From IMG/VR virus record IMGVR_UViG_3300029288_000067, positions 128,001 to 192,000 of that record: 64,000 bases of DNA, one strand, 5' to 3'. Position numbers and translations under genes: made by a program. Positions 55 through 20,988 of this stretch are shown here, in pieces. The notes under the pieces are model-generated. The model made no database searches. It saw only the letters and a program-made list of their open reading frames with translations, and was not told the DNA's origin. The stretch is from a virus (taxonomy: Duplodnaviria; Caudoviricetes). Within the stretch, counting starts at the first letter, position 1, and each line of letters begins with the position of its first letter.

Positions 55-264
55 TTACTTTGTTTCCTTTTTAGCGGGCTCGTAGTTGTTTTTGTACCAT
101 TTATGAAAATCTGAGATTGCATCCCCGAGAGGCCCAAGACCCAACAAACCCAGCCCCATAGAAATGTTGTCCTGAAATTTTTTATTCTTTAATCTCTCTT
201 TCATCTTCTCATCAGAAATGGGATCTTCTTTTTTGGATGGGGCAAGAGCCGAAAGGTAATTCAT
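55..264 (-). CDS. small hypothetical protein resembling a segment of the tape measure protein
   Basis: 69-aa ORF abutting the protease gene; KFQDNISMGLGLLGLGPLGDAISDFHKW aligns with RFRGNTSLGMGMLGMGPIGEAFSGLHKF in ORF 15895..19362. Confidence 0.6.
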   Translation of the reverse strand: MNYLSALAPSKKEDPISDEKMKERLKNKKFQDNISMGLGLLGLGPLGDAISDFHKWYKNNYEPAKKETK

Positions 265-1032
265 TTATTTGCCCTTCAAATATTTTTGGACTGCTGGTTT
301 TTGGAAATATTCTTCAGGGATAGAAAACCCAACAGATACTCCAGATTCAATTCTCAATACACTTCTTTTTACGGCTCCGTGGAATGCGGGGACCTCTGTT
401 AAATAAGAGGCTTCAACATATTCCACAGTTCTTGGTTTTTCGGTTCCCAAGATCTCAGCAATAATTCTTCTATTTCCATGTTCATCTACATAGTGTTTGT
501 TTTTATCATTTGCTAAACAATCACAGAGTTCATGATCCTCACTGAACTGATTTCCACATTTGGAACAAGTGGAGATATATGCGTCACAGCCCATTGATAG
601 GTATTTGACTTGATCTTTTAAGATCATATCAACCATCTTTTTGTTGTCTCGGTGTGTGGCTATTAAAATGTCCACATAATGAATAGGAATATCTGGATGT
701 TCTTTTTCGGGGATTAATCTACGAAGCACCGCATCTGCAATAAAACCAATTGCTTTGTTGGGGACTTGCACATGATTGACATAGTTGTAGGCCCCAATAA
801 AGGATTTATAATTGGCCTTTATAGATTCATTGCTGAAACAATCCCCATTGTTGTTGACAAATTTCTGGGTTATAGGGTGGATATAATGTGTTCCCGGCTC
901 AATATGTACGGAAGAAACAATTGAAGCTTGGGAAAAAATATAATCATCTGAGGAAAGTTCAACTTCTACCTCATTTTTTTTACGAGAGGGTTTTACTGAT
1001 GTTTTGCTTGCGGCAGTAAATTGAAATGCCAT
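265..1032 (-). CDS. putative prohead (capsid maturation) protease with Cys-rich insert
   Basis: NNNGDCF..YKSFIG..VNH..AIGFIADA..LSMGC..CSKCG pattern, which I recognise from prohead-protease-like proteins of large phages; RBS-like AGGAAGGA upstream. Confidence 0.6.
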   Translation of the reverse strand: MAFQFTAASKTSVKPSRKKNEVEVELSSDDYIFSQASIVSSVHIEPGTHYIHPITQKFVNNNGDCFSNESIKANYKSFIGAYNYVNHVQVPNKAIGFIADAVLRRLIPEKEHPDIPIHYVDILIATHRDNKKMVDMILKDQVKYLSMGCDAYISTCSKCGNQFSEDHELCDCLANDKNKHYVDEHGNRRIIAEILGTEKPRTVEYVEASYLTEVPAFHGAVKRSVLRIESGVSVGFSIPEEYFQKPAVQKYLKGK

Positions 1033-1128: not shown

Positions 1129-1515
1129 CTACAGGACGATCTCTTTATCCTCTCCGTCTTGGATGAAATTATCTTTATAGATATCCAATAAATCTGAATC
1201 CGACAAAACATGATTCAATTCTTGGGGATCCTCAAAATAAGTCTTCAGCCATTCTTGATAATCAGCTTCGGTTACATATTTTACCAATCGAGCAGCATTC
1301 TTTTTCAAATTAGAAAGATGAATAGGGAGCATGTAGGCATCTGTTGGATCGATTGCCGCATAATGCCACCCGGAACCATTTGAACCTCTCCAATTCTTAT
1401 CCCCGAGGATTGGGCGGGGGGCTTCGAATATCAACCAGTTCGCGGGAACATCCCCGGGGCGAGTATCAAAGGTTCGGTAGGATTTGAAGGTGTGTTCAAT
1501 TGCAAGTTTTCTCAT
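1129..1515 (-). CDS. hypothetical protein, last gene of the array (short MRKLA leader only)
   Basis: 128-aa ORF 3 nt after the previous stop; no family recognised. Confidence 0.7.
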   Translation of the reverse strand: MRKLAIEHTFKSYRTFDTRPGDVPANWLIFEAPRPILGDKNWRGSNGSGWHYAAIDPTDAYMLPIHLSNLKKNAARLVKYVTEADYQEWLKTYFEDPQELNHVLSDSDLLDIYKDNFIQDGEDKEIVL

Positions 1516-1518
1516 TGT

Positions 1519-2019
1519 TCAATACCTTATATCGGGGTTATTGAGATTGAATCTTTCCGAGAGGGGGATTTCTACACCCCTATTGAAAGTAACTACATCT
1601 GCCAATTTTATTTGAGAGGGAAATTGATTTGTGAATGTGATATAGTTTGTGCAAAGTTGTTCTGATACCCCCGCAGGAGTATCCAGAATATTCTTTAAAA
1701 TAACACCATCTTTCCCTTCTTTTTTTGCCTCAACTAATGCAGGGGGTTGAATAATTGTCCAGTGTTCCCCTTTTGCATCCACTATTAAAGGGTTTTTAAA
1801 ACAAAGAAAGACCTCAATAATTCGTTTACCGTATCCTTTTGCTACCTGAAGATTGTCCGAAAAATAACTTGTGCCGGACTCTGCCTCAAATCGATAATTC
1901 CACATTCCTTTAAAAATGTTAAAAGAAGCCGCATTTGTCCCATGATAAACCGGCCCAATGTTGTAGCCCCTTTGTGCGGCAACTTGGGAAATATTCAACT
2001 GAGAGTATTTCTTGATCAT
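1519..2019 (-). CDS. ADP-ribosyltransferase-like (ART-PolyVal type) protein with MIKKYSQL leader
   Basis: Start re-called to the ATG at 2019 (ATGA overlap with the upstream stop); VYHGT..SYFSD..VFLCFKNPL..DGVILKN..SQIK..IPLSERFN..DIRY motifs. Confidence 0.7.
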   Translation of the reverse strand: MIKKYSQLNISQVAAQRGYNIGPVYHGTNAASFNIFKGMWNYRFEAESGTSYFSDNLQVAKGYGKRIIEVFLCFKNPLIVDAKGEHWTIIQPPALVEAKKEGKDGVILKNILDTPAGVSEQLCTNYITFTNQFPSQIKLADVVTFNRGVEIPLSERFNLNNPDIRY

Positions 2020-2390
2020 TCCGCTGCCCACTTGTCCCAATCCGGGGAGATATTTTGATACACGCTTTCGGTAAATCCTCGGTCTTTCGGTTTGTAATCG
2101 TACATCTTATCACAAACAACATGACCCGAAGGCATCACTTCTCCATTGTGGGTAATAAACCGGGTAACTCTCCACTTTGTTTTATCCGTTGGTTCTTTTG
2201 AAACAATATAGAAAGTTCCAGGATCTGCTGTTGGAACTTTTCCCCCTTTCGGGAGAAGTTTTTTCAACATCAACCGAACTTGTGCTTGTTTCACCTCTTT
2301 GTATTTCTCCCGGAACTCCTCGAAAGACGAAGTATCCCGTTCTTTCGGGAATGTATAAATGCTTGCAAGTTGGGAATATTTCTTGATCAT
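2016..2390 (-). CDS. hypothetical protein with MIKKYSQL leader; paralog of 7839..8210
   Basis: Start re-called to 2390 (ATGA overlap); shared KKLxPKGGKxP..FYIVxKxPxDxTKWR..PxGH. Confidence 0.75.
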   Translation of the reverse strand: MIKKYSQLASIYTFPKERDTSSFEEFREKYKEVKQAQVRLMLKKLLPKGGKVPTADPGTFYIVSKEPTDKTKWRVTRFITHNGEVMPSGHVVCDKMYDYKPKDRGFTESVYQNISPDWDKWAAE

Positions 2391-3721
2391 TTTTCCCACT
2401 CGTGCCCAATTAACTCTGGAAGGTACCCCTCTTTTTTCAATCTATTCGAGTATTCTTCCCAAATTTCCGGGTCTTTTTTCAAAATTTTTTCTGCGGGAAT
2501 CCATTGTCCCCTTTTTGCCGTTTGTACATATTTCCACATTGCCGTAGGATCATTGTGACAATGATACAGCATTATATCATCCCATCTTTTCTGAATACTC
2601 TTGGGATGATCTGGGTCCTCTTCCTCCCCCTCTGTATAGATTTCAGAGTTTTCTTTTATTTTATCCTTTATCACAGTGTTGTAATATGCAATAGCATCTT
2701 TTGCAACCTCATCAGATCTACTTGCATTCTCCAATTGTTCCTCAAAATCTCTGCTCTCCTGTCCCGGGTATACTTTCAAAAAATAGTCCAACCAAGAGGA
2801 AATATTTTGCAAAACAAGCCCTTCTCGAAGAGAGCTTTGCTTAATTTTGTACTTTGTTGCCAGCCAAAAAAGACTATCAGGAATATCATCATATTGATAT
2901 CGTCTCAAGTACATATTGATAATTCTTTCAGCGTCATCTTCGGACACAGCATTAATATTATCTAAATATCCTTCAGATCTCAACTCCATTAACAAAAGAG
3001 CTGCGTTATTATTCATCGAAGAAAACATTTCGTGAATAAGTTCTTGTTCGGAATAAGACAAATCTTCCCAAGGCACATGCACATCTCGAACATCCATAAA
3101 TTGTTCTAAATCATCTGTAAATTGGTATTTAACCTTAATATTGGCATTTTCATCCGAGGATTCTTTTTCCCACAATTGAAATACACTTTTGGTTTCAGAT
3201 GAACGAATATAACTCTCTGCCATACTACGACTACCATAATCTTCCCGAGTACACCAATTTGTCCCCCGCCCTAAAAGTTCCAAACTTGTTTTGTCGGAAA
3301 TAGAGGCAACAACGTATTCATCATTTTGTTCAATTGTGACCCCGGGGAATCGATTCAAATCAGAAACTTTGAATCCAATTTGTGGGGAATAATCTGACAT
3401 CACAAGATAGTGTAATTCCCCCTCAAGGTCAGAAATTTTAGGATATTGGTTAATATCTCGGTGTTTCAATTTTTTCTTATTAGAGAAAACAACAAAATTC
3501 TTCAAAACAGTTTGTACTCGGGGCTCATCTTCCGGCAGACGAATATTTTTAAAAGACATCTGCTTTATTATCCAAGCTTCAAACTTATGCTCCGGAGTGG
3601 GATCTGCTTCATTTGCCAAATAAACAACTTCTTCCGGAGTAATTTCAAGCTTAGTTGCAGCGGTATCAATCTGTTGCTTTGTTGCCCCAGCAATTTTTAA
3701 GTTCGAGTACTTTTTAATCAT
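2387..3721 (-). CDS. PcfJ-like (WCT motif) domain protein with MIKKYSNL leader; paralog of 6370..7842
   Basis: DPT..KFEAW..IRLPED..RDINQYP..GTNWCT motifs; helical C-terminus. Confidence 0.55.
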   Translation of the reverse strand: MIKKYSNLKIAGATKQQIDTAATKLEITPEEVVYLANEADPTPEHKFEAWIIKQMSFKNIRLPEDEPRVQTVLKNFVVFSNKKKLKHRDINQYPKISDLEGELHYLVMSDYSPQIGFKVSDLNRFPGVTIEQNDEYVVASISDKTSLELLGRGTNWCTREDYGSRSMAESYIRSSETKSVFQLWEKESSDENANIKVKYQFTDDLEQFMDVRDVHVPWEDLSYSEQELIHEMFSSMNNNAALLLMELRSEGYLDNINAVSEDDAERIINMYLRRYQYDDIPDSLFWLATKYKIKQSSLREGLVLQNISSWLDYFLKVYPGQESRDFEEQLENASRSDEVAKDAIAYYNTVIKDKIKENSEIYTEGEEEDPDHPKSIQKRWDDIMLYHCHNDPTAMWKYVQTAKRGQWIPAEKILKKDPEIWEEYSNRLKKEGYLPELIGHEWEK

Positions 3722-3724
3722 TTC

Positions 3725-4780
3725 TTAATACCTAAAATCTTTTGTTCCAAGATTAAATCTTTTTGAAATTGGAATGATATTCTTCTCATTGTCATATGTA
3801 ACCAATTCCGAAGATTTTATTATGTTGTTAAAAAGAGTTGCGTATGTAGTTTGGCCTTTTTCGGTCATTTTAATGATTTTAAATCCAGCTTTTTTAAATG
3901 CTTCCAAAAGATTTTCATCCATTTCCAAACTTCCCCAAGTGTCAAAAGAAGATTGAACAGGATATCGAGAAGTTCTGTAAATAGATGGTTCCGTGTATCT
4001 ATCATTCACAAAAAGCATGTATTTCTTCCTAAACCAATTGGAGGAAGAGTTTCCATTTCTTTTCTCTCTTTCTAATTTTTTCAAGTCCTCTATCACAGTT
4101 TGTTTTGTGTATCCCTTTTCTTTGAATTCTTTTTCCACCCGCTCCACATAAAAAGACGGCATACTCCGATTGTTTGGGAAGATAGAAACAATTGTTCCTC
4201 TTCGGGCATACAAAACATAATTGTTTTCAAACCCTATTAATTCATAAGACAATGGTTTACTGCCCACTTCATTATCGGGAAGAGGATCTCCTGGTTTCTT
4301 TCCTTTTAAATCCTCTTCTGAAAATTTAGGGGATTCAATCTCAATTCCTGAAATCTCTTCCAACCATTCTTCTTTTGTTATATCTTGCCCACCCCAAGTT
4401 CCCCCAGAATAAATTTTTTCTGGAAGATAAGGGAATACTTTTCCGATGTCCTCTTTTGAAGAAGGATCAAATATCTTCCCGTACAAATAGAAGGACTTTA
4501 CTCGAATATCGGCATCCATTTGCATTTCGAAAGATTTTTGCTCGGCATAGCTTCTTGCAAATTTCTCAGAAGGGGAAAAGAATTGAAGATTTCCTTTGAA
4601 AGTGTGGTTCTGAAAATTAAACACAGTTCCATGATAAACAATGTCTTTGTTGAACCCTTTACTCATTGCCTGCTGTTTTACCATTGCAAATAAAGATCTG
4701 TTATCTTTTCTCTCAATTGCTGTCAAGAATTGTTCGTCTTGCGTAAAAGCATTATGTAATGTGGAGAATTTTTTAATCAT
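3725..4780 (-). CDS. ADP-ribosyltransferase-like (ART-PolyVal type) protein with MIKKFSTL leader
   Basis: VYHGT..FFSPSEKFARSYA..VKSFYL; C-terminus IIKSSELVTYD..IPISKRFN..DFRY resembles ORF 1519..2019; large central insertion. Confidence 0.6.
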   Translation of the reverse strand: MIKKFSTLHNAFTQDEQFLTAIERKDNRSLFAMVKQQAMSKGFNKDIVYHGTVFNFQNHTFKGNLQFFSPSEKFARSYAEQKSFEMQMDADIRVKSFYLYGKIFDPSSKEDIGKVFPYLPEKIYSGGTWGGQDITKEEWLEEISGIEIESPKFSEEDLKGKKPGDPLPDNEVGSKPLSYELIGFENNYVLYARRGTIVSIFPNNRSMPSFYVERVEKEFKEKGYTKQTVIEDLKKLEREKRNGNSSSNWFRKKYMLFVNDRYTEPSIYRTSRYPVQSSFDTWGSLEMDENLLEAFKKAGFKIIKMTEKGQTTYATLFNNIIKSSELVTYDNEKNIIPISKRFNLGTKDFRY

Positions 4781-5907
4781 TGCCCCTTAACCTTGTTAAA
4801 AAATTCCCCCTCGTGATTGAATCCAAAGTCACTCCAAATATATGTAACCCCTAAACCAACTTTATCCATCACTTTTCTTAGAGCATCGTGTAATGGGTCT
4901 TCTCGATAAAACCTTGCATGTCTATATTCCTCTGCCGTGGCAAAGTTCTTTACCACAAAATCCGCCAATGGTTGAAGTTGTCGGGGAATTTTATTTGAGG
5001 ACATATCTTGTTTCAATTCTTTGTCTTGTTTTGCCGCATTTTGCATTGCATTCAAGAATACATAAAACTTCCCATTGCCTGTCTGTATTTTTCTTCCCTT
5101 AGAAGTAATATCAAAATAAACTTCTTTCCCTTTTGCCAAACCTTCCAACACAAAGATTTGTTTTTTCGAAGGGATTCCCGCTTTTATTGGAACTTGAATA
5201 CTCAATTCATTTGTAACAGAAACCACTCGGATATTCCCCGTTAAATCCAAAAACTCCTGCAAGGTTTCTTCATGAGATTCTTTTGCATCATCCCCAAGAG
5301 CATCCTGTGCAATTTGTCTATGATCAATATTTCGCCCACCATACGAAGAACCCCGCAATCGACCACTACTATCAATACAACTTCCTTGCGGGGTGATAAA
5401 TCCGATACTTGCTGGGTCCGATGTTAGGCCCCACATACGAATAGCGCGGCGATTTGCTTGTTCTCCTGTAAGGACTGCTACTTTTAGTTGAGAGTATTTT
5501 TTGATTGCCACAGTTTTATTTCCAGTCCATTTGAAGAAATCATCTACGCTGCCGTGGAAATACAATTCATCCCCACCTTCTAACTCGGCATAAAGCTCCC
5601 CGAAGAAATCTGGGTAAACTTTTTTCACCAAACCTTTAACGTGGTCCAAGTCAGATGAGAACATGACGTTGATAGTAGGGGGTATTGTATTCGTCCCATG
5701 AACACGGAGCCACCCTTTGTTCAACAAAAAATGCAGAGGGTCCCGCTCTTCTTTGTTGGAAAGTCTCAACTCCTTTACCAGTCTTGCGGCATAGGCATCA
5801 TGTGAATTTGTTGCAGAATTCTTCAAGGAATAGAACTTTCCCTGCGGGGAGATCCAACCGGAATCCATCGCGGAAATGCTATCCAAGGAAGAATATTTTT
5901 TAATCAT
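4777..5907 (-). CDS. two-domain hypothetical protein, each domain preceded by an IKKYSxL leader
   Basis: Start re-called to 5907 (ATGATTAA overlap); internal IKKYSQLKVA at ~5505; both domains have a G[WF]I[ST]PxG..H..G[WN][LI]RV motif. Confidence 0.75.
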   Translation of the reverse strand: MIKKYSSLDSISAMDSGWISPQGKFYSLKNSATNSHDAYAARLVKELRLSNKEERDPLHFLLNKGWLRVHGTNTIPPTINVMFSSDLDHVKGLVKKVYPDFFGELYAELEGGDELYFHGSVDDFFKWTGNKTVAIKKYSQLKVAVLTGEQANRRAIRMWGLTSDPASIGFITPQGSCIDSSGRLRGSSYGGRNIDHRQIAQDALGDDAKESHEETLQEFLDLTGNIRVVSVTNELSIQVPIKAGIPSKKQIFVLEGLAKGKEVYFDITSKGRKIQTGNGKFYVFLNAMQNAAKQDKELKQDMSSNKIPRQLQPLADFVVKNFATAEEYRHARFYREDPLHDALRKVMDKVGLGVTYIWSDFGFNHEGEFFNKVKGQ

Positions 5908-6373
5908 TATCGTCTTCCAAATCTTTCCAGTCACCTACAATATCCTCATCGTAGTATGTGATTTTTTCAGTTACGCCCAACGCTTGAAGAGCTTCGCATT
6001 CTTCTAATTGATCTGCAACCCGGGACCGCATATTGTCCCAAATTGAGTACTTGATATTGTCTGTTACCATCAGTGAATTATCGTTCATGTAGAACGAAAA
6101 AGAGATAACAGTATTTGGAAGTTTTAAGGCATCCCGAACTCCTTGATGAAGGGCAGCATATCTATCCCAAACTAAGATGTCCCCAGAACTTAATAAAAAT
6201 CCAGCAAAGGATTTGTCCGAGAATTTTTCGGCCCCGGGAATTTGAAGCAATTCTCTTTTGTCGGGGTTTTTTAAAATTTCAGTATTTTTAAAAATAGAAG
6301 GTGTTTTTTTCTTGGGGATAATTTCCAAGAAATCCGCTCGATGTTTGTGGAGTTGTGAATACTTCTGGATCAT
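5900..6373 (-). CDS. hypothetical protein with MIQKYSQL leader
   Basis: 157 aa, ATGA overlap; GFLLSSG..H motif weakly resembles neighbouring domains. Confidence 0.75.
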   Translation of the reverse strand: MIQKYSQLHKHRADFLEIIPKKKTPSIFKNTEILKNPDKRELLQIPGAEKFSDKSFAGFLLSSGDILVWDRYAALHQGVRDALKLPNTVISFSFYMNDNSLMVTDNIKYSIWDNMRSRVADQLEECEALQALGVTEKITYYDEDIVGDWKDLEDDND

Positions 6374-7842
6374 ACAACATTCAACTTTCGATGTTTTTTC
6401 TGAAACCCTTCTTTATTCATTTTATCAAGTACATAAGCATTCCACGGAGAAGAGGATAACCTTATTTGAGGAACCATATTGTCATCTTTCCCATACTTAG
6501 AAAGATATGGCTCTATCTCCAACCAAGGATTGTCATCTCCCATTAAAATATAGTAGTGGGCAGCAAGTGAAGACAACATAGACAATATTTTCAATGACTT
6601 CGATGTTTGAAAGCATTCCAACAAGAAATCCTCGAATGAAACCCATTTATTACTTTCTATCATGTAGTTTCTTTCCAAGTATTTCCCCATCCGATTGTAC
6701 CATCTTACCGTTGTAGACGTATTAGGGTATGTTGCTTCTTCAATATCCAAGAAATAATCTTCCCCACCCCGCCATAATCCAAAAGGCTGTACATTCAAAA
6801 CATATTCCCAAGCAAGATTTGCTTCAACAACATTGGAGTCTGTAGAATCTTTTGGCAGTTGTTTATTCACAAGAGCTTGCTCGAATTCAGGCCACCGGGG
6901 ATGATTATAGTTGTCCAAGAAATATAAATTGATATAATGACAGGATGCAAATTTAGATGTTAAAAGAATACTTCGAAAGGAATGATCCCCTGTTTTTTCA
7001 ATTACATCTCCAACATCCCCTGGGTGTGTTTTATCAACAATGTATTGTCTTTCTATTGGGGTAATAGGGGTTTTTTGTTGCAGAGCAAACAGGAGTGCAT
7101 TTTTATAAAAAGCAAACAACCCTTCATGGGGTTCGTACTGAATAGAGTAATCTTCTCCGGCATTTGCCAACTCTTTCCAATAGGAGTCAATAATAAGCCT
7201 TACCAAAGAAGAATCAATGCCTTGAACTCTTTTATCTTTTATATCCATAAATTGGGCAAGATCCGCTGTTGCTTGATACATTTTCTCAAGGGAATTTCCC
7301 ATTTTTTTGAAAATAACCAACAACCAAAACTCTGAAATATAATGCTCTGCAGTGGAAGGGTCCGAAGTACACCATTTGGACCCAGAAGCTAATTGTGAAG
7401 CAGATCCAGGATCATCAACCGCTAAAATCAACCAATCGTTATTCTGAGCAAAGACTCTTACCCCATTCAATGCTAAGTATTCATTCAACTTACTGGAGGT
7501 ATCCGGAGTTACTTCTTGCCCCTTTACTTTATCTATCTCTGCTTCCAGATCATGAATTCTTGGGTATTGATTGATATCTCTTTTGGATATCTGCTTTTTA
7601 TTCGACAATTTGATGAAATCTTCAAGGACTTGTTTCAATCGATTTCCATCTTCCGGTAACCGGATATTTTCAAATCCCATCTGTTTTACTACCCAAGCTT
7701 CAAACTTCTTTTCTTTTGTAGGATCAAACTGATTTGCACGTTTCAATAAATCTTCGGGGGAAATGCCAAACTTTTTCGAGACTGCATCAATCTGTTGTTG
7801 TGTCGCCCCAGCAGTTTTAAGTAAAGAATATTTGAGAATCAC
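6370..7842 (-). CDS. PcfJ-like (WCT motif) domain protein with MILKYSLL leader; paralog of 2387..3721
   Basis: GTG start at 7842 (GTGA overlap with the upstream stop); DPT..KFEAW..IRLPED..RDINQYP..GSKWCT. Confidence 0.55.
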   Translation of the reverse strand: MILKYSLLKTAGATQQQIDAVSKKFGISPEDLLKRANQFDPTKEKKFEAWVVKQMGFENIRLPEDGNRLKQVLEDFIKLSNKKQISKRDINQYPRIHDLEAEIDKVKGQEVTPDTSSKLNEYLALNGVRVFAQNNDWLILAVDDPGSASQLASGSKWCTSDPSTAEHYISEFWLLVIFKKMGNSLEKMYQATADLAQFMDIKDKRVQGIDSSLVRLIIDSYWKELANAGEDYSIQYEPHEGLFAFYKNALLFALQQKTPITPIERQYIVDKTHPGDVGDVIEKTGDHSFRSILLTSKFASCHYINLYFLDNYNHPRWPEFEQALVNKQLPKDSTDSNVVEANLAWEYVLNVQPFGLWRGGEDYFLDIEEATYPNTSTTVRWYNRMGKYLERNYMIESNKWVSFEDFLLECFQTSKSLKILSMLSSLAAHYYILMGDDNPWLEIEPYLSKYGKDDNMVPQIRLSSSPWNAYVLDKMNKEGFQKKHRKLNVV

Positions 7843-8210
7843 AAAGCTTTCTCCCATGCATCAAAGTCTACCAATTTATCAGTTCTTAAATATTTTGCAA
7901 CTGAATCTTCAATTCCTATTAAATTTTTGAATACCCGATGTCCAAGAGGGATTATATCATCTTGGGCATTAACCCCAAACAAGGAAATTCTCCATTTTGT
8001 ATTATCCAGGGGATCTTTATTAACAATGTAAAAACGGCTGAATTTTGCAGGAATTTTTCCACCTTTTGGCATTAACTTCTTTTCCACAAGACTCTGTATT
8101 TCCGTCCAACGCAATTCCAACAATTCCCGATTCTTTGCCCGGTCTTCTTGCAAAGGAGGTATATCGTATTTTCCAGATTGCTTCATCAAAAGGGAATATT
8201 TTCGAATCAT
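7839..8210 (-). CDS. hypothetical protein with MIRKYSLL leader; paralog of 2016..2390
   Basis: ATGA overlap; shared KKLMPKGGKIP..FYIVNKDP..TKWR..PLGH. Confidence 0.75.
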   Translation of the reverse strand: MIRKYSLLMKQSGKYDIPPLQEDRAKNRELLELRWTEIQSLVEKKLMPKGGKIPAKFSRFYIVNKDPLDNTKWRISLFGVNAQDDIIPLGHRVFKNLIGIEDSVAKYLRTDKLVDFDAWEKAL

Positions 8211-8887
8211 TTCTTTAAAGCCCCCGTTATATCTGAGGAATCCAGGCGAAACTCTCCCTTATTCCCATACACCGATTTAATCTGTGTGGAATCAAAAACA
8301 ACATATTCATCGGGAGTGAATCTTTTTTGAGGCTCTTTTTTACCCGGCGCGGTAATAGCATCGTGGGAAAAAATCAACCCATCCGCACCCCATTTTCTCA
8401 ATTTTGCCATTATCTCCGAATTGATAACAAAGGGGAATCCATTGATTTGATTCTCTACATTATACAGGTTCAAGTCTTTCTTTACTTGCTCCCATTGCAC
8501 TCCTGAAAGGATGCGTAAGGGTTCCTCTATTTTGAGATATACCGGGATAACTCGGGACCCTTTTTCATTTGGATTGGTAGAGAATGCCGGAAGTTTGTCC
8601 CTCCATTTGGAAGGACCAAAATAAATTCCTAATCCCTTTGCCGGATTCCCTCCCCCGGGAACAAATTCTTTGAAGTCTTTGCTTGTGATATGATATACCG
8701 GCATAGGCATTCTATGATCGAAAGGGTATTCATCCCTGAAAGTAACAACAGAACTTCCAAACCAACTCTTGAATTCAGGTGTTTCCACAAGCTTGTTGAA
8801 TTTATACTTGTCAGATTCCGGCCAGATATTCAAAGGAACAGGTTTTCCTTCTTCATACTTTTCAAGATCAGAATATTTTCGAATCAT
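8207..8887 (-). CDS. ADP-ribosyltransferase-like (ART-PolyVal type) protein with MIRKYSDL leader
   Basis: EFKSWFGSSVV..PVYH..GIYF..VIPVYLKIEEPL..DGLIF..DEYVVFDSTQIKSVYGNKGEF; H, Y and E positions retained. Confidence 0.75.
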   Translation of the reverse strand: MIRKYSDLEKYEEGKPVPLNIWPESDKYKFNKLVETPEFKSWFGSSVVTFRDEYPFDHRMPMPVYHITSKDFKEFVPGGGNPAKGLGIYFGPSKWRDKLPAFSTNPNEKGSRVIPVYLKIEEPLRILSGVQWEQVKKDLNLYNVENQINGFPFVINSEIMAKLRKWGADGLIFSHDAITAPGKKEPQKRFTPDEYVVFDSTQIKSVYGNKGEFRLDSSDITGALKK

Positions 8888-8891
8888 TATT

Positions 8892-9362
8892 TTACAGTGC
8901 CTCTAAAATTTCGGGGGTTAAGTTCCTCACCTGTTGAATAAAAAAATCAGTGGCAAGTTTCTGTATTTCTTCTGCTCTTATGAAAGAGATATCATCCAAA
9001 GGTTTATTCTCTTCCCCGTCCCGAACAAGTATATCAGAGTCTTCTTCATGCCGTACAAAACCTAAGTAAGTTGTGCAGAACCACATAGATATCGAACCAT
9101 CATCAGAAACAAATTCATTTACAACTTTTTCAACAGATTCCAGATCTTGATTCTTTACGGCATCCTCTAAAACGGGAAACAACCAATCGTATTCATTTTT
9201 GATAAGTTTCGCAAAACTCTTCGCATTGTTTTGGTCTAAATTCTTTTTTTGTTCCGGGGTAATCCGATACTTTGGGGGTCTACCCCGTTTCTTTTTGTAT
9301 AACTCTGATTCGGGCAGAGGTGTTCCAGAGAGTCTTTTAAGTGTAGAGTACTTAGAAATCAT
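8892..9362 (-). CDS. AT-hook-containing protein with MISKYSTL leader
   Basis: KKKRGRPPKYR AT-hook core; ATGA overlap. Confidence 0.65.
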   Translation of the reverse strand: MISKYSTLKRLSGTPLPESELYKKKRGRPPKYRITPEQKKNLDQNNAKSFAKLIKNEYDWLFPVLEDAVKNQDLESVEKVVNEFVSDDGSISMWFCTTYLGFVRHEEDSDILVRDGEENKPLDDISFIRAEEIQKLATDFFIQQVRNLTPEILEAL

Positions 9363-10480
9363 TCCTCATCGTTTCCTTTGCTGAACTCACATTCACTTAC
9401 ATCTGGATCTGCAATCTTCAATTTCCGTAAATCCGGGCGAGGGCAATGTTCTGGATGAGTATGTACAAATTCTCCGTTTTCGCCGTCCGAAATTTTTCGA
9501 GGATAAAAATCTTCCTGTTGTTTTACAACTTCATTATTTTTTCCAGGAGCAACATTCCCAGGATCCGGAGCAAGATCTGAAATATTCTGAAACATGCCCC
9601 CGAAATCTGCTTTTTTAATTTTCCCATTATACATTTTATACTCCCGGAGTTCAGACAAAGGTAAATCGCTGTCCACTTTTTCAAAAGGAATATTCGAGTA
9701 ATAGGTCTTGTTGTTGTTTACTTGAATTCCAATAGACAGATCAAAAGCCGCATCCTCATAAATCTGAAGAAAAGCTTTCCGAATTTTCCCAAGTTTGGTG
9801 GAATCAATGGAAGCAACTTCCACTTGATCCTGTGCAATTCGGATAGCATCCAGTTCTTCTAAAGCATAGGTTCGGAACCGACTGGAAGAATTGTACAAAT
9901 TGTCAAGGGTTTCAGGATCAACATCAGGATCAGACTCCAACAAATTCCGAACAACTTCAACATGTCCCGCTTCCGAAGCATCATACAGTTTATTATTTAT
10001 GAACCAATAATCGTGTTGTTCTGCTTTTTTTTTAATTTTAGAGTAACGCTGAATCATTTGTTCTTTTCCAGTCCATCTTAAAAATTCTTCCATACTTCCG
10101 GAAAAGAATACATTATTCACATCTGCATTTACTTTCCCAAAATATTGAGAAAACACTTTTCCCACATTTTGTTTTACAGTAGACAAATCCCCAGCAGCTT
10201 CGATATTAAGTGCATTTCTATGCCCTTCCTGTGCTTCGGCAATTCTTATCCACCCAAACTTTAACAAATATTTTAATGCAGATCCCCAAATATACTCATC
10301 ATTTTTATGCTTGAAAAAGTCTTGAAATAAATTCTTTTCTTTCAAGATTTGCATTGCCAATTCGGAATGGGTCTCATTCGTTCCAAAGTCCACAAATTGA
10401 CCCTCTGGGGAAATAAAACCTTGACTTAGTTTGTTGGAGATTCTTCTCAATTTGTGCAGGCGGGTTATTTTAGCAATCAT
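9359..10480 (-). CDS. two-domain hypothetical protein with degenerate N-terminal leader and internal MIQRYSKI leader
   Basis: N-domain paralogous to the 4777..5907 N-domain (GFISPEG..H..GWIRI..FLRWTG); in-frame internal ATG at 10057. Confidence 0.75.
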   Translation of the reverse strand: MIAKITRLHKLRRISNKLSQGFISPEGQFVDFGTNETHSELAMQILKEKNLFQDFFKHKNDEYIWGSALKYLLKFGWIRIAEAQEGHRNALNIEAAGDLSTVKQNVGKVFSQYFGKVNADVNNVFFSGSMEEFLRWTGKEQMIQRYSKIKKKAEQHDYWFINNKLYDASEAGHVEVVRNLLESDPDVDPETLDNLYNSSSRFRTYALEELDAIRIAQDQVEVASIDSTKLGKIRKAFLQIYEDAAFDLSIGIQVNNNKTYYSNIPFEKVDSDLPLSELREYKMYNGKIKKADFGGMFQNISDLAPDPGNVAPGKNNEVVKQQEDFYPRKISDGENGEFVHTHPEHCPRPDLRKLKIADPDVSECEFSKGNDEE

Positions 10481-12096
10481 ACATTCCCCGGATAAATTTC
10501 ATAGGTTTGTCCCGTAGTTCCAAAAATATCTGCATCCAGAGTCAGTTGGGTGTTGGAATCAATAGAAACGATCTTAGCAGATCTCAATGCTTCTGGATTA
10601 GAAATTAAGCTACCTACTTGAATTGGGAGCATTGTAAACATTGCAGTGCTATCGATCAATTTCTTAGTCTGCAATTCAGTGTTTGTTGATTTTGACAAAT
10701 AACTCCAATATCCATTGTTGTCCGGGGAAATTGCTACTACATAGTCTTTAACAGCGGTAACAATAACGGACAATGAGATGAGCTTCAAGTATTCATTATA
10801 TGCAAATGTTTTATCGGAAACAGGTCTTTCGGAGTAAACACGGATAACCCCGGATATTTTTGAAACCTCGGAAGTAATTTGCCCTACGTGAAAAGTTGTG
10901 CCCAATTTCATTGTGTTTGTTGCAATGGTTTCTTTTATTGCCGCTTCAATTTCACTTTGTTGCACACCTTCTTCAATGATACAAACCATCTTCATTTCAA
11001 CCCCAATTTTCTTGGGGGGCTGAATGCTCAATTCTTCCCCGACCATTTTATAATCGTCTAAGAAAGCATACATTGCATCTATTTCGGAGATAGATGCGAT
11101 ATGCTCATCATCAAACAAGTATGCAAGCAGAATTGTGCAACATCCAGACTCCATTTTTTTATACCCAGCAGAAATTAAAGACCCGGAATAATTCAAAAAG
11201 ATATAAACATGATCCAAGCCTGTGACCATTCTTCTCTTAGAAGTAAGATATCCTGGGGCTGTTGCCGCCATTTTAGGAATAGTATCTCCAACATATCCGG
11301 GATTCAACACTTGGATGGAGTTAATAGTGCAATCTAGGTTTTTTGTCAGGTTATCAGGAACAAGAGAGGCTACGTCCAAAGGCCCCAAAGTATTAATGTA
11401 ATTGAATTTAACAGCATCATTTACTCGCAACTGAAGTCCAATATACCCATCACCAAAAACAAGAAGAATTCCACCTTGATACGTTTTAATCAATACATTA
11501 TTTGGCAAGAACTCATCTGCATATTTCACTAAAGGATAAGAAGAGGAGTTAATCAACAACTCAAGAGTATCCATAAAGAGATTGTTATCAATACCTGTAT
11601 CCAAAACAAGAATATTTGCAAATTTATCATTTGTTTCTGAAATAAAATCAATAGATTTCCAATCTCCCATCACAAATTCCATTTCATGGGTTCCAGCAGT
11701 AAGTGTTTGTGAACTCAACAATGAAATACTTCTATCTCCATAATAAAAAACGGGAAGAGTTCTATCCCAAAATGCAGAGCTTGTAAGGGTAAAATTAATT
11801 TTCAATCGAGGAGCAGAAACTCTGTTTACAGGATATCCAACAATATTGCAAATATTAATAGCAGAAGTGTACAATTTGCAGGTATCAAGATAAGATTCTC
11901 TTCTTGCTCCAAGAGAGTGGAAGCCCAAAAAAGTACCCAAACCTGAAAGCAACTCAATAGTTGTGGTTCCGGTTCCAGATTCATAAAAATCTTTCCACTT
12001 AGAATAGTCTGGAAGATTTTCAACGTACTGAATTAAGTCCTCTTTTATTCTTTCGTAAGACAAAGAGGCCGGATCGATGATTGTGTACTGTGACAT
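10477..12096 (-). CDS. baseplate wedge subunit (T4 gp6 / P2 gpJ-like)
   Basis: LSYERIKEDL..WKDF..LL..RRESYLDT..GY; FGDG; RMVTGLD motifs; lies after the gp25-like gene. Confidence 0.85.
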   Translation of the reverse strand: MSQYTIIDPASLSYERIKEDLIQYVENLPDYSKWKDFYESGTGTTTIELLSGLGTFLGFHSLGARRESYLDTCKLYTSAINICNIVGYPVNRVSAPRLKINFTLTSSAFWDRTLPVFYYGDRSISLLSSQTLTAGTHEMEFVMGDWKSIDFISETNDKFANILVLDTGIDNNLFMDTLELLINSSSYPLVKYADEFLPNNVLIKTYQGGILLVFGDGYIGLQLRVNDAVKFNYINTLGPLDVASLVPDNLTKNLDCTINSIQVLNPGYVGDTIPKMAATAPGYLTSKRRMVTGLDHVYIFLNYSGSLISAGYKKMESGCCTILLAYLFDDEHIASISEIDAMYAFLDDYKMVGEELSIQPPKKIGVEMKMVCIIEEGVQQSEIEAAIKETIATNTMKLGTTFHVGQITSEVSKISGVIRVYSERPVSDKTFAYNEYLKLISLSVIVTAVKDYVVAISPDNNGYWSYLSKSTNTELQTKKLIDSTAMFTMLPIQVGSLISNPEALRSAKIVSIDSNTQLTLDADIFGTTGQTYEIYPGNV

Positions 12097-12112
12097 TTAT
12101 AAATCCTTCACA

Positions 12113-12493
12113 TCATGTGTTTCTTCTCAAAATCCCACCAAATACATAGAAATTATTGGAATCTAAGCCTTTAACAGAGAATGTTAAAGACACATTGTAC
12201 AAATATTTCTCATAGTCCGGAGTAACATATGATCGACTGTAATCAATTGTAACCCGGGGCTCCCATCGCTGAATTGCGACCACAACGGCATCGTAGATAG
12301 CTTTTGCGGTTAACTCATCTAAAGGCTCAAATAACAAATCTTCAATCTCGGATCCAAATTCCGGGAGGAACAACCTTGTATTTTTTCTCGTGGAAAGGAT
12401 ATTGGAAATTGATTGATAAATACTGTCAAGATCTCTTACAAGAGGATCTTGTGTTGGTGCGGTCTGATTAAAATCTGAATATAAGGGTGCCAT
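12113..12493 (-). CDS. baseplate wedge / sheath initiator, gp25-like
   Basis: YSDF..SIYQSISNILST..RLFLPEFGS..LLFEP..AIQRWEPRV; start re-called to MAPLYSDF. Confidence 0.9.
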   Translation of the reverse strand: MAPLYSDFNQTAPTQDPLVRDLDSIYQSISNILSTRKNTRLFLPEFGSEIEDLLFEPLDELTAKAIYDAVVVAIQRWEPRVTIDYSRSYVTPDYEKYLYNVSLTFSVKGLDSNNFYVFGGILRRNT

Positions 12494-12537
12494 ATTTATA
12501 CCGAAAAAAACACGAAAATATTTTTCGGTATTATTGA

Positions 12538-12798
12538 TTAATTGGCAAAAGTATCCGGGGATGCTGCGATAATTTTCCCCCCACAAGCAGAGGCATCTCC
12601 AATTCTACACACTCTCATTCCTTCGCGGTATACATCCGGGGAAGCCTCTACCATAGGATTCGGTCCATGATACGGACACATATGTATTGCCCCGACCGTA
12701 TTTACAAGTTTACCATTGACATATGTGTGAGTGGTTATTGCAATTACAACACCACCATGGTCAGTAGGATCTCCACTTCTGGAAATTGGAATAGACAT
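12538..12798 (-). CDS. PAAR-repeat spike tip protein (gp5.4-like)
   Basis: ISRSGDPTDHGG..VNGK..CPYHG..VCRIGD..CG. Confidence 0.85.
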   Translation of the reverse strand: MSIPISRSGDPTDHGGVVIAITTHTYVNGKLVNTVGAIHMCPYHGPNPMVEASPDVYREGMRVCRIGDASACGGKIIAASPDTFAN

Positions 12799-12799
12799 A

Positions 12800-13675
12800 T
12801 TATTTTCCTATCTTATCTGCAACTTCAGTCAACCGTGCTTGAATATTTTGTGCTTGTCGATTTAGGTCTGTAATTGTCGTATTAATTGAATCGATTGCCC
12901 CTTGTAATGCGGAATATTCAGAGGGTGTTGGGAGGGCTCCCGGGGATAATCCACTGTTTTCATGAATTTGTGGGGCATCCATTGTGATATCTGCATTCGA
13001 CCGAATACTCACTCTACCAGGGGCAGAAATATTCACACCCCCACCACCCCCAGTAATCCCATATCCATTATTGGCATTCAAATACATTGTATTACCACAA
13101 TTCTGAATATGGTTAATTCCAGAAGAGATAATCGTAGAGGCTCCAACTTGAATTTGTAACTCAGAACCAACTTGGAGGGTTACATTCTTGGGAATAGAGA
13201 TTGTCAGGTTTCCCGCACCGTCAAACTTTACGTGATGCCCAACAAAAGATGAGAAGAACTCAAAAAATTTACTTTCCTTATTTATTTTGAACCAATGCCC
13301 AGCAGAATCTATTGTCCCGTAACTATTGGGATAATCTTCGTCAAAAGGCTCTTGCGGGGCAGTCAGAGAGTTTTGTCTTCTACCACCATAGTAGGGATGA
13401 TACGGATCATTTGTAGGCCAGGAAACAAGAACTTCTGACCCAATTTCAGGAACAGCAAAGAATGAGGAGTCTGGTTTCCCCCCAAGAGAAGAATCGGCAT
13501 TTTGAAATGCCCAAGGAAGTTTACTTACATCTGCATCTTCATAAACACCCTTCACATACACTTTTACCCGAAGAAGTTTTCTCGGGTCATTATTATCAAC
13601 AACTCTTCCAACTTGTTGAGTTTTAAGAAGGTTTACGGATTTTGAATCTTTTGTTGTTGTGAATTTAGTAAGCAT
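12800..13675 (-). CDS. baseplate central spike (gp5/VgrG-like OB fold plus beta-helix, no lysozyme domain)
   Basis: GRVVDNNDP..RVKV..LPWA..VPEIGSEVLV..PYY; C-terminal beta-helix-like repeats. Confidence 0.85.
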   Translation of the reverse strand: MLTKFTTTKDSKSVNLLKTQQVGRVVDNNDPRKLLRVKVYVKGVYEDADVSKLPWAFQNADSSLGGKPDSSFFAVPEIGSEVLVSWPTNDPYHPYYGGRRQNSLTAPQEPFDEDYPNSYGTIDSAGHWFKINKESKFFEFFSSFVGHHVKFDGAGNLTISIPKNVTLQVGSELQIQVGASTIISSGINHIQNCGNTMYLNANNGYGITGGGGGVNISAPGRVSIRSNADITMDAPQIHENSGLSPGALPTPSEYSALQGAIDSINTTITDLNRQAQNIQARLTEVADKIGK

Positions 13676-14805
13676 TAATCAATCCTAGAACTATTCGGGG
13701 CTTCTCTCACAAACTCAACTTGTGTCTTGAATTGTCTTCGTTCAATCATACGAGATACTTTTGTTACTACATAAAGCCCAGTATATGTTTCCACCGCAAA
13801 TTTTCTGTTGGATTTTGTATCCTCTTCCTTGAAGAAGATAAGATCCAGGGGGTGTATTTTCTTGAACTTCTCAATAAAAGTGACAATTAATTTTACGGTT
13901 GAAAAACCAAACAAATGTACTGAGTTTTGAATTCGAGCTTTCCAAAAATTCTTATGCACATTGTCAAGAGATTGGTAAGAATGATCGTCGTATCTCGGGG
14001 AAATATCCTTAGAAGTAATTGTTTTTTCCGACAAGGAGAACGTTGGACTTGCCGGGTTTTGTTCCAAGAGGGTAAAGGTGCCATCTTCCAGGTTTGCTAT
14101 CACTTTCTTTTTTCCATACGCGGAAACTTGATTCAAAAAAGTAGAGGCAGTTTTTACTTCATAGGGGGCTTCATAAAGAATATCTTTTGAATCTTTTTCT
14201 TCATTTGTGAATCTCCAAGAAAAAGAATCTTTTGCAAGGGCTTTTATATCCCGCAATCGAAATTCCCCGGTCATTGTGATAGCTGCAGCCATGAAAGAAT
14301 CTGGGATATAGGAATGCATCCAAACTTGTGTTACAAAGTTTCTATCCGTGATATTCGTTTGTATCCAATGCATGGAATCATTTGGGGAAGCATTTGTGGA
14401 AAAAGTAAAATAAGGAGAAACAATATTTTTTATTGTTGTGGTTGAAATATTCTTATCAGAAATAGAAACCTTTCTATCCGTCAAGTATTTCAAAGCATGA
14501 TACAACCCAACAATACGAACTGCAAATTTGTTTTCCCCTACTTTTGTAGGTTGCACTTTCATTGGAATTAATACAGAATCTTCCAACTCATTCAAAGTCT
14601 TTCCCATGGTAACTGTTAAAACATTGCCCTCATTCAGGTATTTAATAATTTTTTCTTCATCAATCTCAAAAATAAGCTCAAAAGTTGGCAAGATATTTCC
14701 AGTCTCTTCAACTATTTTGAAAATATGCAATTGTTCTTCCGTTAAAAAATCTTTAAACCCAGCAACGGAAAAAGAAGCTCTATATTGTCCTTCAACACCA
14801 ATCAT
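13675..14805 (-). CDS. baseplate hub protein (gp27-like)
   Basis: Position between gp53-like and gp5-like genes; C-terminal YTGLYVVTKVSR motif. Confidence 0.55.
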   Translation of the reverse strand: MIGVEGQYRASFSVAGFKDFLTEEQLHIFKIVEETGNILPTFELIFEIDEEKIIKYLNEGNVLTVTMGKTLNELEDSVLIPMKVQPTKVGENKFAVRIVGLYHALKYLTDRKVSISDKNISTTTIKNIVSPYFTFSTNASPNDSMHWIQTNITDRNFVTQVWMHSYIPDSFMAAAITMTGEFRLRDIKALAKDSFSWRFTNEEKDSKDILYEAPYEVKTASTFLNQVSAYGKKKVIANLEDGTFTLLEQNPASPTFSLSEKTITSKDISPRYDDHSYQSLDNVHKNFWKARIQNSVHLFGFSTVKLIVTFIEKFKKIHPLDLIFFKEEDTKSNRKFAVETYTGLYVVTKVSRMIERRQFKTQVEFVREAPNSSRID

Positions 14806-15176
14806 TACAGAACTCCAGTTATTGTCGTATTTCTTTGCAAAGCATTCAATTGGAAATAAACCTCTTCCAAATCTTCAATTCTTGGATAATTTATTGTGTC
14901 CCCCTCTTTCATATCCAAAGGGGTAATATAATCATTATACAGCATTAAAATATACCAGAAATTGACATCACGATACAAGCGATAAGATAACAAATCCGGG
15001 CGATGCTCTTCCCCCGAAATAGTGGTTGTCCCAAAAACTTCCAATCTTTTAACTTTTGTTGCAAAAAAGGAATCCAAAAGATCATAGACATTTGAAGTCA
15101 TTTGCACAAACTTCTGCAAATCGTAGCGGTCTTTGAAATCCTCTTTATTGAGTAGTGGTAAATTAATAAAAAACAT
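14805..15176 (-). CDS. baseplate wedge gp53-like (LysM-like) protein
   Basis: RPDLLSYRLYRDVNFWYILMLYN..GDTINYP. Confidence 0.8.
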   Translation of the reverse strand: MFFINLPLLNKEDFKDRYDLQKFVQMTSNVYDLLDSFFATKVKRLEVFGTTTISGEEHRPDLLSYRLYRDVNFWYILMLYNDYITPLDMKEGDTINYPRIEDLEEVYFQLNALQRNTTITGVL

Positions 15177-15180
15177 GCAA

Positions 15181-15885
15181 TTACTCTACTGTAGTTGTGA
15201 TGTTAGGTTTCTTAAAAAAGGTCACAATTTCATCGGCAAATAATGCTTTATAAGCTAAGAATGTTACGGAACCTTCTGCATACAAAGGGAGTCCACCACT
15301 GATAATTTCTTTAGAAATGCTGAAATCCACATTTTCAATCAAAAAAAGAGGGGGAGTTTCAAACCATCTCCCAATGCTCAAAGAAATCAATGTTTCCGGC
15401 TTTGTGTCATAATAATTTGGAGCAATCATTGTAAGTCCGGTGCTATCTTTTATTGGATGACAGCACCGCATCAATATCTTTACAGGACCCGTGACATCCA
15501 CATCTCTTTTTGTGGCATAAAAAGCTAATCGGAGAGTAAAAGAGAGTTTCTTGTGATTTTCCCATGTAGAAATTGTAGAATGCACTGTTCGTATTTGTCT
15601 TTGTGCAAAATTGGGGTTTGACCCATAATTTCTTGCTCCCAAGCCAACAGCAATATTCCATGCTTTACTTCCCGCTTCTGCCGCTCCCGCAGCAGGACCA
15701 AAAACAGCAGATCCCGGATCAGTATATCCAGCATGTGCCGAAAAATTAGTATTTTCAACAATTTCAGCCTCAAGAACTCCTCGGGCAGAGCCCAAGGATC
15801 CAGTCATTGCAAATCCGGGTAATCCAATTAAAATTTTGGAGTTGGGATTATTTTTAAGTTCATTCAAAAAAAGATTTACTGGCAT
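15181..15885 (-). CDS. baseplate/tail-tube junction protein (gp48-like)
   Basis: Position after the tape measure gene; tube-like fold features (SFTLRLAF..IENVDFS..GLPLYAEGSVTF). Confidence 0.45.
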   Translation of the reverse strand: MPVNLFLNELKNNPNSKILIGLPGFAMTGSLGSARGVLEAEIVENTNFSAHAGYTDPGSAVFGPAAGAAEAGSKAWNIAVGLGARNYGSNPNFAQRQIRTVHSTISTWENHKKLSFTLRLAFYATKRDVDVTGPVKILMRCCHPIKDSTGLTMIAPNYYDTKPETLISLSIGRWFETPPLFLIENVDFSISKEIISGGLPLYAEGSVTFLAYKALFADEIVTFFKKPNITTTVE

Positions 15886-15894
15886 AATTTTTCC

Positions 15895-19362: not shown

Positions 19363-19388
19363 ACTTCTGTCTTTTTCAATACAAGAAT

Positions 19389-19416
19389 AAAACCGGGGGA
19401 CTATTCCCCCGGTTTT
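19389..19416. terminator. GC-rich hairpin between the chaperone genes and the tape measure gene
   Basis: AAAACCGGGGGA-CTAT-TCCCCCGGTTTT. Confidence 0.55.
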
Positions 19417-20964: not shown

Positions 20965-20988
20965 TGTGACACCTTTTGTGGAAAATAA

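Follow-up and report, generated by a model that had tools for sequence, protein, structure and literature searches.

A recurrent N-terminal peptide on many unrelated genes of a huge phage: a candidate address tag encoded within the head module

Background

In phage T4, the internal proteins IPII and IPIII start with MKTYQEFIAE and IPI starts with MKTFKEF (PMC8442874). The first 10 residues of this capsid-targeting sequence (CTS) suffice for packaging, with residues 4 and 7 serving in targeting and residues 8 and 10 in processing (PMC9026906). In phage P1, fewer than 30 N-terminal residues of the DarB protein are sufficient to bring a reporter into the capsid (PMC9024508), and the polyvalent proteins of phages and conjugative elements are predicted to be packaged and injected with the DNA (Iyer et al. 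2017, PMC5512222). Here we describe a 64,000-nucleotide stretch of DNA (the window), bases 128001-192000 of the single-contig, 224,066-bp virus record IMGVR_UViG_3300029288_000067 (39% G+C), in which many unrelated genes start with one peptide, M-I-x-[KR]-[YF]-S-x-L, referred to below as the tag. Our literature search found no publication with the MIKKYS motif, nor one linking capsid targeting to jumbo or huge phages.

The tag resembles the T4 CTS in several ways. Each is an N-terminal peptide of about 10 residues that is common to otherwise unrelated, fast-evolving proteins, and in each the key positions are held by an aromatic residue and, three places on, a hydrophobic one: Y5 and L8 here (i and i+3, with a Lys before) and Y4 and F7 in T4. 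Genes of head-internal proteins lie between the portal and protease genes (67 and 68 in T4), and the cargo includes anti-defence functions. On the other hand, there are about 23 tagged genes per genome here versus three internal proteins in T4, and they encode mid-sized enzymes rather than small basic proteins, some with internal copies of the tag at domain junctions. The P1 system likewise combines an N-terminal capsid signal with a cargo that is an injected counter-defence enzyme (PMC9024508), but its signal is found on one protein, whose loading needs other Dar proteins in a fixed order, whereas here one motif recurs on dozens of genes. The polyvalent proteins have ADP-ribosyltransferase (ART-PolyVal), zincin-like peptidase, methyltransferase and, weakly, ParB-like nuclease domains in common with the tagged proteins, and the same predicted delivery at the start of infection; they carry two to fifteen conflict domains per polypeptide, in contrast to one domain per separately tagged gene here. 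An earlier suggestion that the window holds, in effect, a polyvalent protein split into units comes down to a resemblance of domain repertoire.

Short loading signals on diverse proteins are also found outside phage heads. Encapsulin cargo-loading peptides are short, conserved and present on diverse enzymes, and they dock to the inner face of a shell with the HK97 fold. Unlike the tag, they are usually C-terminal and have another motif, and encapsulins have neither DNA nor a portal. The payloads of extracellular contractile injection systems and Photorhabdus virulence cassettes (eCIS/PVC) are encoded in arrays of diverse effector genes beside the structural genes of a contractile machine and have an N-terminal loading region in common. 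Their signals are disordered, span about 50 residues and load a tail tube, while the constant neighbours of the tagged genes are head genes.

Distribution and conservation of the tag

PHROG and Pfam matches indicate that the record belongs to a contractile-tailed huge phage. Genes marked by these matches include those for the baseplate wedge and hub, a tail protein of 1155 amino acids (aa) bearing a lysozyme domain, a fibritin-like protein, the portal, the head maturation protease, the major head protein, NrdD and replication proteins. No close relative was found among GenBank phages by megablast and tblastn; with the portal as query, only distant huge phages were found there, and the gene order of Tunturi_5 differs from that of this phage.

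The tag, often followed by K-x-A, begins 23 genes of the genome when starts missed by the crude gene caller are taken in. Fourteen of these are in the window: eleven form an array on the minus strand, from 10480 to 1519, and three (starting at 44734, 45153 and 45574, plus strand) lie directly after the portal gene. The nine outside the window fall into three clusters, at genome position 71950, 85.2-89.3 kb and 107.3-109.8 kb. A preliminary description of the window had reported the eleven minus-strand N-termini from 10480 to 2019, including a GTG start at 7842 and a degenerate copy at 10480, as well as three further copies at 44734-46194. Each of these proved to be present where it had been placed, but the nine genes outside the window and two internal copies (AIKKYSQL at 5508 and MIQRYSKI at 10057) had been missed. 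Likewise, the tagged array had been drawn from 1129 to 10480; the eleven tagged starts are there, but the gene at 1129-1515 is untagged.

The strict pattern MI.[KR][YF]S.L was found 17 times in the six-frame translation of the 224-kb genome versus zero to one time in 20 shuffles. A position-specific scoring matrix (PSSM) built from the tag instances detected 27 genome positions, of which 25 were judged real, versus four with the reversed matrix. When all gene starts were scored with it the distribution was bimodal: 19 starts scored 12 to 28 and a handful 2 to 10, the median being -14.5. No gene for a capsid, scaffold, protease, portal, tail or replication protein was tagged in this scoring, in agreement with the earlier remark that replication and tail genes lack the motif. 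The tagged genes are a discrete and non-random class, and those that match a stricter pattern (n=20) account for 4,807 of the 69,628 encoded residues. It had been expected that a search of the whole genome and its relatives would give hits only on head-associated and cargo genes. The class is indeed discrete, recurs in relatives and is not spread over random starts; nine of its members lie outside the head module.

Within the tag, positions 2, 4, 5, 6 and 8 are near-invariant, with Y5 and L8 the most invariant side chains. Positions 3 and 7 vary freely; if the tag were a short helix, they would share one of its faces. At I2, K4, Y5 and L8, synonymous codons are used in genome-wide proportions, so the earlier observation that the DNA varies synonymously around a conserved peptide was correct. 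The Ser6 codon is always TCN and never AGY, which fits a single origin of the tag segments. No conserved sequence was found in the 50 nucleotides (nt) upstream of the tagged starts, which are unrelated to one another. Moreover, the internal copy AIKKYSQL at 5508 has a GCA codon in first place, and thus the peptide is retained where translation cannot start. Background codon usage at the fixed residues, the unrelated upstream DNA and this copy on a non-start codon together indicate that selection acts on the peptide.

Modularity of the tagged proteins

When the tag was removed (first 12 residues), 50 tagged open reading frames (ORFs) from three genomes, including two internal tag copies, fell into at least 27 BLAST families, confirming that unrelated bodies stand behind the tag. 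One family begins with a domain of about 140 aa (the N-domain), which is always followed by a second, internal tag at about residue 142 and then by a variable body. In a related 52-kb Logan contig (L157, described below), two of the bodies behind the N-domain are ones that occur as stand-alone tagged genes in the window (5900-6373 and 2016-2390). Since bodies are found either alone or fused with a tag at the junction, tag and body appear to move as a unit, with fusion and fission taking place at the tag.

The protein encoded at 45574-46194 was modelled with AlphaFold 2 (AF2) from a 42-row alignment. The body had a predicted local distance difference test score (pLDDT) of 94 and its first helix began at residue 18, whereas residues 1-10 had a pLDDT of 54 and no secondary structure. 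Pfam domains also begin just behind the tag: the ART encoded at 1519-2019 from residue 24, and an Acb1 protein of a relative from residue 13. The tag is accordingly modelled as a flexible appendage outside the folded body. Foldseek gave no match to the 45574-46194 model in the PDB at E 0.001 or below, and the best match of a wide VIA-align search was to zinc-transporter helical bundles, at a Z of 8.5, which is in the range expected for unrelated helical proteins. With no informative match to a solved structure, the body may be an uncharacterised enzyme of huge phages; it is a widespread all-alpha domain in which E56, H57, G59, D60, R64, K88, E105 and N146 are invariant. A complex prediction that combined the capsid protein, the scaffold candidate, residues 35-255 of the protease and a 123-aa tagged protein scored 0.00 and was uninformative either way.

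Gene order in the head module of related genomes

A search of IMG/VR for related loci containing the portal and the 444-aa protein found nothing, and relatives were located by means of a degenerate DNA pattern of the tag. This pattern identified one 197-kb IMG/VR contig, with 19 exact matches versus none in the control. The 197-kb relative has about 20 tagged genes, and 117 of its 342 genes are common to this phage; identities are 90% for the capsid protein, 76% for the protease and 70% for the portal. Its main array is directly downstream of the portal gene, and three more tagged genes are directly upstream of the protease gene. The Logan contig has 9 tagged genes in an unsplit order: portal, nine tagged genes together with one N-domain gene whose called start is untagged, a 130-aa gene and the protease, after which come genes for a 95-aa protein, an acidic scaffold candidate (383 aa), a 171-aa protein and the capsid protein. 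In two further metagenome contigs (L165 and L168, with protease identities of 74% and 70%), tagged genes are found immediately upstream of the protease gene.

Compared with the unsplit order, the window reads as a split block, with three tagged genes behind the portal and eleven between the baseplate wedge gene and the protease-scaffold-capsid genes. In the T4 record the order is 20 (portal), 67 and 68 (prohead core), 21 (protease), 22 (scaffold) and 23 (capsid); the tagged genes thus sit in the portal-protease interval, where T4 has its prohead core genes. Placement in the head module is seen in L157, the 197-kb relative, L165, L168 and the window. In sum, the tag is real, selected as a peptide, modular, outside the fold, carried by unrelated bodies and encoded within the head module.

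Tag-like peptides were also seen at the other end of ORFs. In the 197-kb relative (G001), at 49729 (plus strand) and 183750 (minus strand), KIKSYSALKRQNP and RIVKYSSLRKRG end ORFs at the C-terminus, right before the next tagged gene, which is in another frame. These may be scars of cassette insertion at tags.

Families of tagged proteins

In this genome, ART-PolyVal (PF18760) is matched above the Pfam cut-off of 31.2 bits three times. Two of the matches are in the window, at 1519-2019 (43.4 bits, from residue 24) and 8207-8887 (62 bits), ART bodies having already been proposed for the array; a 60-bit match is at L150:6312-7337. A probable fourth ART has a large insert. The other bodies include a SprT-like zincin, a weak Nudix match and one AT-hook-like motif, and the rest have no family. 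The preliminary description had also labelled some bodies PcfJ-like. Neither 2387-3721 nor 6370-7842 matched PcfJ (PF14284) in Pfam at E 0.01 or below, and in the Atlas PcfJ appeared at rank 10 with a score of 0.82, in a cluster with 21% PcfJ members; the label has a weak lead from the Atlas and no support from Pfam.

In the relatives, tagged genes encode two ART-PolyVal proteins, a class I methyltransferase, a protein with leucine-rich repeats, a SprT-like protein and, among weak matches, PARP, a ParB-like nuclease and a YunG-like protein. In addition, there is an Acb1 phosphodiesterase (PF23474) directed against the cyclic-oligonucleotide-based anti-phage signalling system (CBASS), which is encoded at L139:15326-15802 (minus strand; 49.9 bits, cut-off 27) and is not in the window; in BLAST it matches T4 gp57B at E 4e-6. 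Gp57B, the Acb1 protein of T4 (L173:13953-14411, minus strand), itself starts with MMEFKDFST, which resembles the IPI start MKTFKEFTST, and its gene adjoins ipI (13592-13879, minus strand). The tagged bodies range in size from 100 to 650 aa. Each tagged gene has a single recognisable domain, and the only two-part proteins are those consisting of N-domain, tag and small body.

Lineage-specific N-termini on a common body

The body encoded at 45574-46194 has 42 homologues in a large protein collection. Nine of these, with at least 48% identity, start with MI[KTRQV][KR]YS. Remoter homologues have other N-termini on the same body, namely MRxW[IM]xLCE, M.FK.W[LI], MNWYK (on two homologues), xRRLxVFA and MRAHEFLIES. 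Several of these N-termini recur on neighbouring genes: four consecutive genes of a soil contig (L158) start with x-RRL-x-VFA, three adjacent genes of L160 start with M[NH]FK[LIQ]WL, and two genes of L159 start with MKI[KN]E. Pfam searches of the variant-tag genes in these three contigs found HEAT repeats only. In Salicola phage SCTP-2 (L163, MF360958), a similar body forms the C-terminal half of gp47. Several of the variant N-termini contain [LI]-x-E, the cleavage motif of T4 gp21, which the MIxKYSxL tag does not. One body with differing N-termini that are specific to a genome and common locally is what is predicted for a tag co-evolving with a genome-specific receptor.

Two further observations concern such N-termini. 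In SCTP-2, a zincin-like region with HEMVH is fused to the 45574-46194-like body in gp47, and at least eight neighbouring genes in the interval 10512-24042 start with MKVKHIT, MKVKQIT or MKIRHL. In an unrelated phage fragment of 89 kb and 29% G+C (IMGVR_UViG_3300015608_002982, L141-L145), about 20 genes start with M-x-[IL]-K-[KRT]-[YF]-x-x-F-[IL]-x-E. Examples of this form, which is intermediate between the MIxKYSxL tag and the T4 CTS and has an I-x-E site, are MIKKYSDFINES, MKLKRYGDFINES, MIKKYADFIKES and MKNIKTYNQFIKS. PHROG searches did not show a T4-like identity for this fragment or for IMG/VR contig G2.

The tag as a capsid-targeting address

The reading that we favour, and consider somewhat more likely than not, is that the tag would be a portable N-terminal address that directs proteins to the capsid, like the T4 CTS in its working but greatly expanded, and that it would load about two dozen proteins for delivery with the DNA. 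The discreteness of the class, selection on the peptide, the modularity of the tag and its place outside the fold all point this way, as do the 4-nt overlaps among the array genes and with a baseplate gene. Further evidence comes from the spacing of Y5 and L8, which equals that of Y4 and F7 in T4; the location of the array within the head module of related genomes; the lineage-specific tags on the common 45574-46194 body; and the nature of the cargo, since ART-PolyVal, SprT-like zincin, methyltransferase and Acb1 families are known or predicted to be injected (PMC5512222).

Several observations weigh against this reading. Nine of the 23 tagged genes form three clusters at a distance from the head genes, and the array of the window also touches a baseplate gene, so that the context here, taken by itself, would suit tail loading too. 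With the tag PSSM, the T4 IPII/IPIII and IPI N-termini stay at the background level (-12 to -27), and only a loose K-x-[YF]-x-x-[FL] is common to the two signals. Neither [LI]-x-E nor any other conserved cleavage motif follows the tag; positions 9-12 are K/A/H, K/I/N, A/S/I and A/K/S, with no conserved Glu, although a protease of other specificity may cut there. The head proteins have no BLAST similarity to those of T4. Finally, the T4 internal proteins are basic and the tagged bodies are not, with a median isoelectric point of 6.1 versus 6.8 for the other proteins. In view of the background PSSM score, the lack of a cleavage Glu and the unlike head proteins, we class the tag as CTS-like in working but place it outside the T4 CTS family. 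The preliminary description had proposed a modular, head-linked payload by analogy with the T4 CTS. That proposal is partly supported, by the head-module array in three related genomes, the flexible tag, the effector-like bodies and the lineage-specific N-termini; a T4-type cleavage motif is absent, and nine tagged genes are outside the head module.

Alternative explanations

The foremost alternative, which we judge unlikely, is that the tag docks to, or is recognised by, a partner other than the capsid interior. This partner could be the prohead protease (with the tag as an activating propeptide), a chaperone, an eCIS/PVC-like site in the tail lumen or another compartment made by the phage. 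A modular, lineage-specific peptide outside the fold suits any common partner, and the internal copies where domains join could serve as sites of cleavage or recognition; that the array of the window abuts the baseplate wedge gene, and that nine tagged genes are outside the head module, also fits. However, the constant neighbours in L157, the 197-kb relative, L165 and L168 are the portal and protease genes, not tail genes, and no conserved candidate partner gene besides the head genes accompanies the arrays. With respect to the tail lumen in particular, the tube of a myophage tail is normally filled by the tape measure protein.

It is improbable that a modifying enzyme recognises the tag as its leader, whether this enzyme belongs to a protein-tagging system or to one like those that make ribosomally synthesized and post-translationally modified peptides (RiPPs). 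Such a leader would account for one short conserved N-terminus on many unrelated proteins and for the invariant Ser and Tyr within it, but the bodies behind the tag are full-size enzymes of 100-650 aa and not small precursors. Nor does an enzyme gene accompany the arrays. The genome has one radical-SAM gene beside NrdD, at 161.8 kb, and another at 58.4 kb, and neither adjoins a tagged cluster.

Quite improbable as well is a common start that arose as a by-product of cassette shuffling, as a recombination joint, or by descent through tandem duplication, with no role in sorting. The constant TCN codon for Ser, suggesting a single origin, the C-terminal tag-like peptides before tagged genes in the 197-kb relative and the fusion and fission exactly at tags can all be read in this way. 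Yet the tag DNA is only about 24 nt long and synonymously scrambled, which makes it a poor substrate for homologous recombination, and purifying selection maintains the peptide across at least 27 unrelated families and several divergent genomes.

Least credible is a signal at the RNA level, which in a host without Shine-Dalgarno use would either enhance translation initiation or be bound by a translational regulator. The A/T-rich first codons of the tagged genes and the many starts with no obvious Shine-Dalgarno sequence might suggest this. Against it, codon choice at the fixed residues is that of the background, no upstream sequence is conserved, the peptide at 5508 is retained although its first codon is not a start, and orthologous bodies in other lineages have quite different peptides. 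Both a pure recombination joint and an RNA-level signal are contradicted by the codon data.

Genes of the window

The array (minus strand throughout) opens with a 373-aa gene (9359-10480) that has the degenerate tag MIAKITRL, the N-domain of about 140 aa, the internal tag MIQRYSKI at 10057 and a variable C-domain. The MISKYSTL gene (8892-9362, 156 aa) has an AT-hook-like KKKRGRPPK and no Pfam family above cut-off, and is followed by the ART-PolyVal gene with MIRKYSDL (8207-8887, 226 aa). Next is the MIRKYSLL gene (7839-8210, 123 aa), whose body in the Logan contig follows the N-domain in one protein, with an internal tag between them, and whose paralogue is the MIKKYSQL gene at 2016-2390 (124 aa). 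The gene with the GTG start, VILKYSLL (6370-7842, 490 aa), belongs to the largest tagged family, with 9 members in three genomes; the MIKKYSNL gene (2387-3721, 444 aa; no Pfam family) is its paralogue. Between these are the MIQKYSQL gene (5900-6373, 157 aa), which has the same body as one behind the N-domain in the Logan contig, the MIKKYSSL gene (4777-5907, 376 aa), made up of the N-domain, the internal AIKKYSQL and a second body, and the MIKKFSTL gene (3725-4780, 351 aa). Both ends of the last resemble the ART at 1519-2019, and it is thus probably an ART with a large insert. The array closes with that ART gene, MIKKYSQL (1519-2019, 166 aa).

Neighbouring genes of the array have 4-nt overlaps, and the first array gene overlaps the 3' end of the baseplate wedge gene (10477-12096, minus strand) by the same length. 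The overlap with the wedge gene points to one transcription unit and to co-transcription with structural genes, and the array genes would then be expressed alongside them. At the other end, an untagged 128-aa gene (1129-1515, minus strand), whose counterpart in the same place in the Logan contig starts with MINKIAIEH, separates the array from the head maturation protease gene (265-1032, minus strand). The protease gene is followed (genome 125445-127991) by genes for a 69-aa protein, the acidic scaffold candidate (365 aa), a 171-aa protein and the major head protein (287 aa). On the plus strand, the portal gene (42562-44730) is followed by the MITKYSCM gene (44734-45156, 140 aa), with an orthologue at the same place in the Logan contig, the MIKKYSFL gene (45153-45581, 142 aa) and the MIKKYSILKR gene (45574-46194, 206 aa), which encodes the conserved all-alpha body described above. 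Pfam and solved-structure searches gave nothing significant for the protease, the scaffold candidate and the three genes after the portal, and AF2 modelling of the protease, on an alignment of three rows, gave a model too poor for use (pLDDT 37).

Some features of the neighbouring genes may be added. The scaffold candidate (genome 126894-127991; L152:6897-7991, minus strand) has the invariant N-terminus MRKVLSKVQKV, a conserved C-terminal SMF and a long acidic region with NP[DN][ML]PKENP repeats; in relatives, three small head-module genes near it also start with MRKL. By eye its N-terminus looks like the tag, but its PSSM score is background (rank 94) and it was rejected as one. The 69-aa ORF (window 55-264, minus strand) aligns with residues 131-179 of the tail lysozyme or tape-measure-like protein (1155 aa; 15895-19362, minus strand), with 39% identity over 49 residues. 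In the Logan contig (L157:1-232), NrdD is 1019 aa long and has a faint LAGLIDADG match, versus 668 aa in the window (34552-36558), suggesting insertion of an intein or homing endonuclease.

Proposed mechanism and significance

If the tag is an address for the capsid interior, binding to the prohead, packaging and injection could proceed as follows. Judging from the operon structure, the tagged proteins would be made together with the head proteins. The flexible N-terminal peptide, probably as a short amphipathic helix presenting I2, Y5, S6 and L8, would dock to an abundant receptor inside the prohead, for which the scaffold candidate or scaffolding core and the inner face of the capsid protein are candidates. 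Closure of the shell would then enclose the cargo. Removal of the tag by a protease may or may not occur, no cleavage motif being visible. On infection, the cargo would exit with the DNA and act before phage gene expression; from their family annotations, the ARTs and zincins would act on host proteins and the Acb1-like enzymes on defence signals.

More tentatively, and with rather less confidence than we attach to the tag in this phage, the lineage variants may belong to one general protein-injection system in large phages of many lineages. An N-terminal code read by the prohead would exist in dialects (MIxKYSxL, MRxWIxLCE, M.FK.WL, MNWYK, xRRLxVFA and the T4 CTS), each loading tens of interchangeable enzymes, such as Acb1-type proteins and ADP-ribosyltransferases, so that counter-defence would arrive as protein before phage gene expression. 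The variants on one homologous body also offer a natural data set in which the receptor could be sought by co-variation.

If the capsid-targeting role is correct, about 7% of the coding capacity of this phage would be devoted to enzymes delivered ready-made with the DNA, some of them from families that disarm immunity. The principle of the T4 internal proteins, of which there are three small ones, would thereby extend to an arsenal that is large and exchangeable, and the clustering of such genes in the head modules of huge phages would be explained. The tag would also make it possible to predict the injected proteome from metagenomes by a simple sequence rule, and would provide a handle of 8-12 residues for packaging foreign proteins into capsids beyond the T4 and P1 models.

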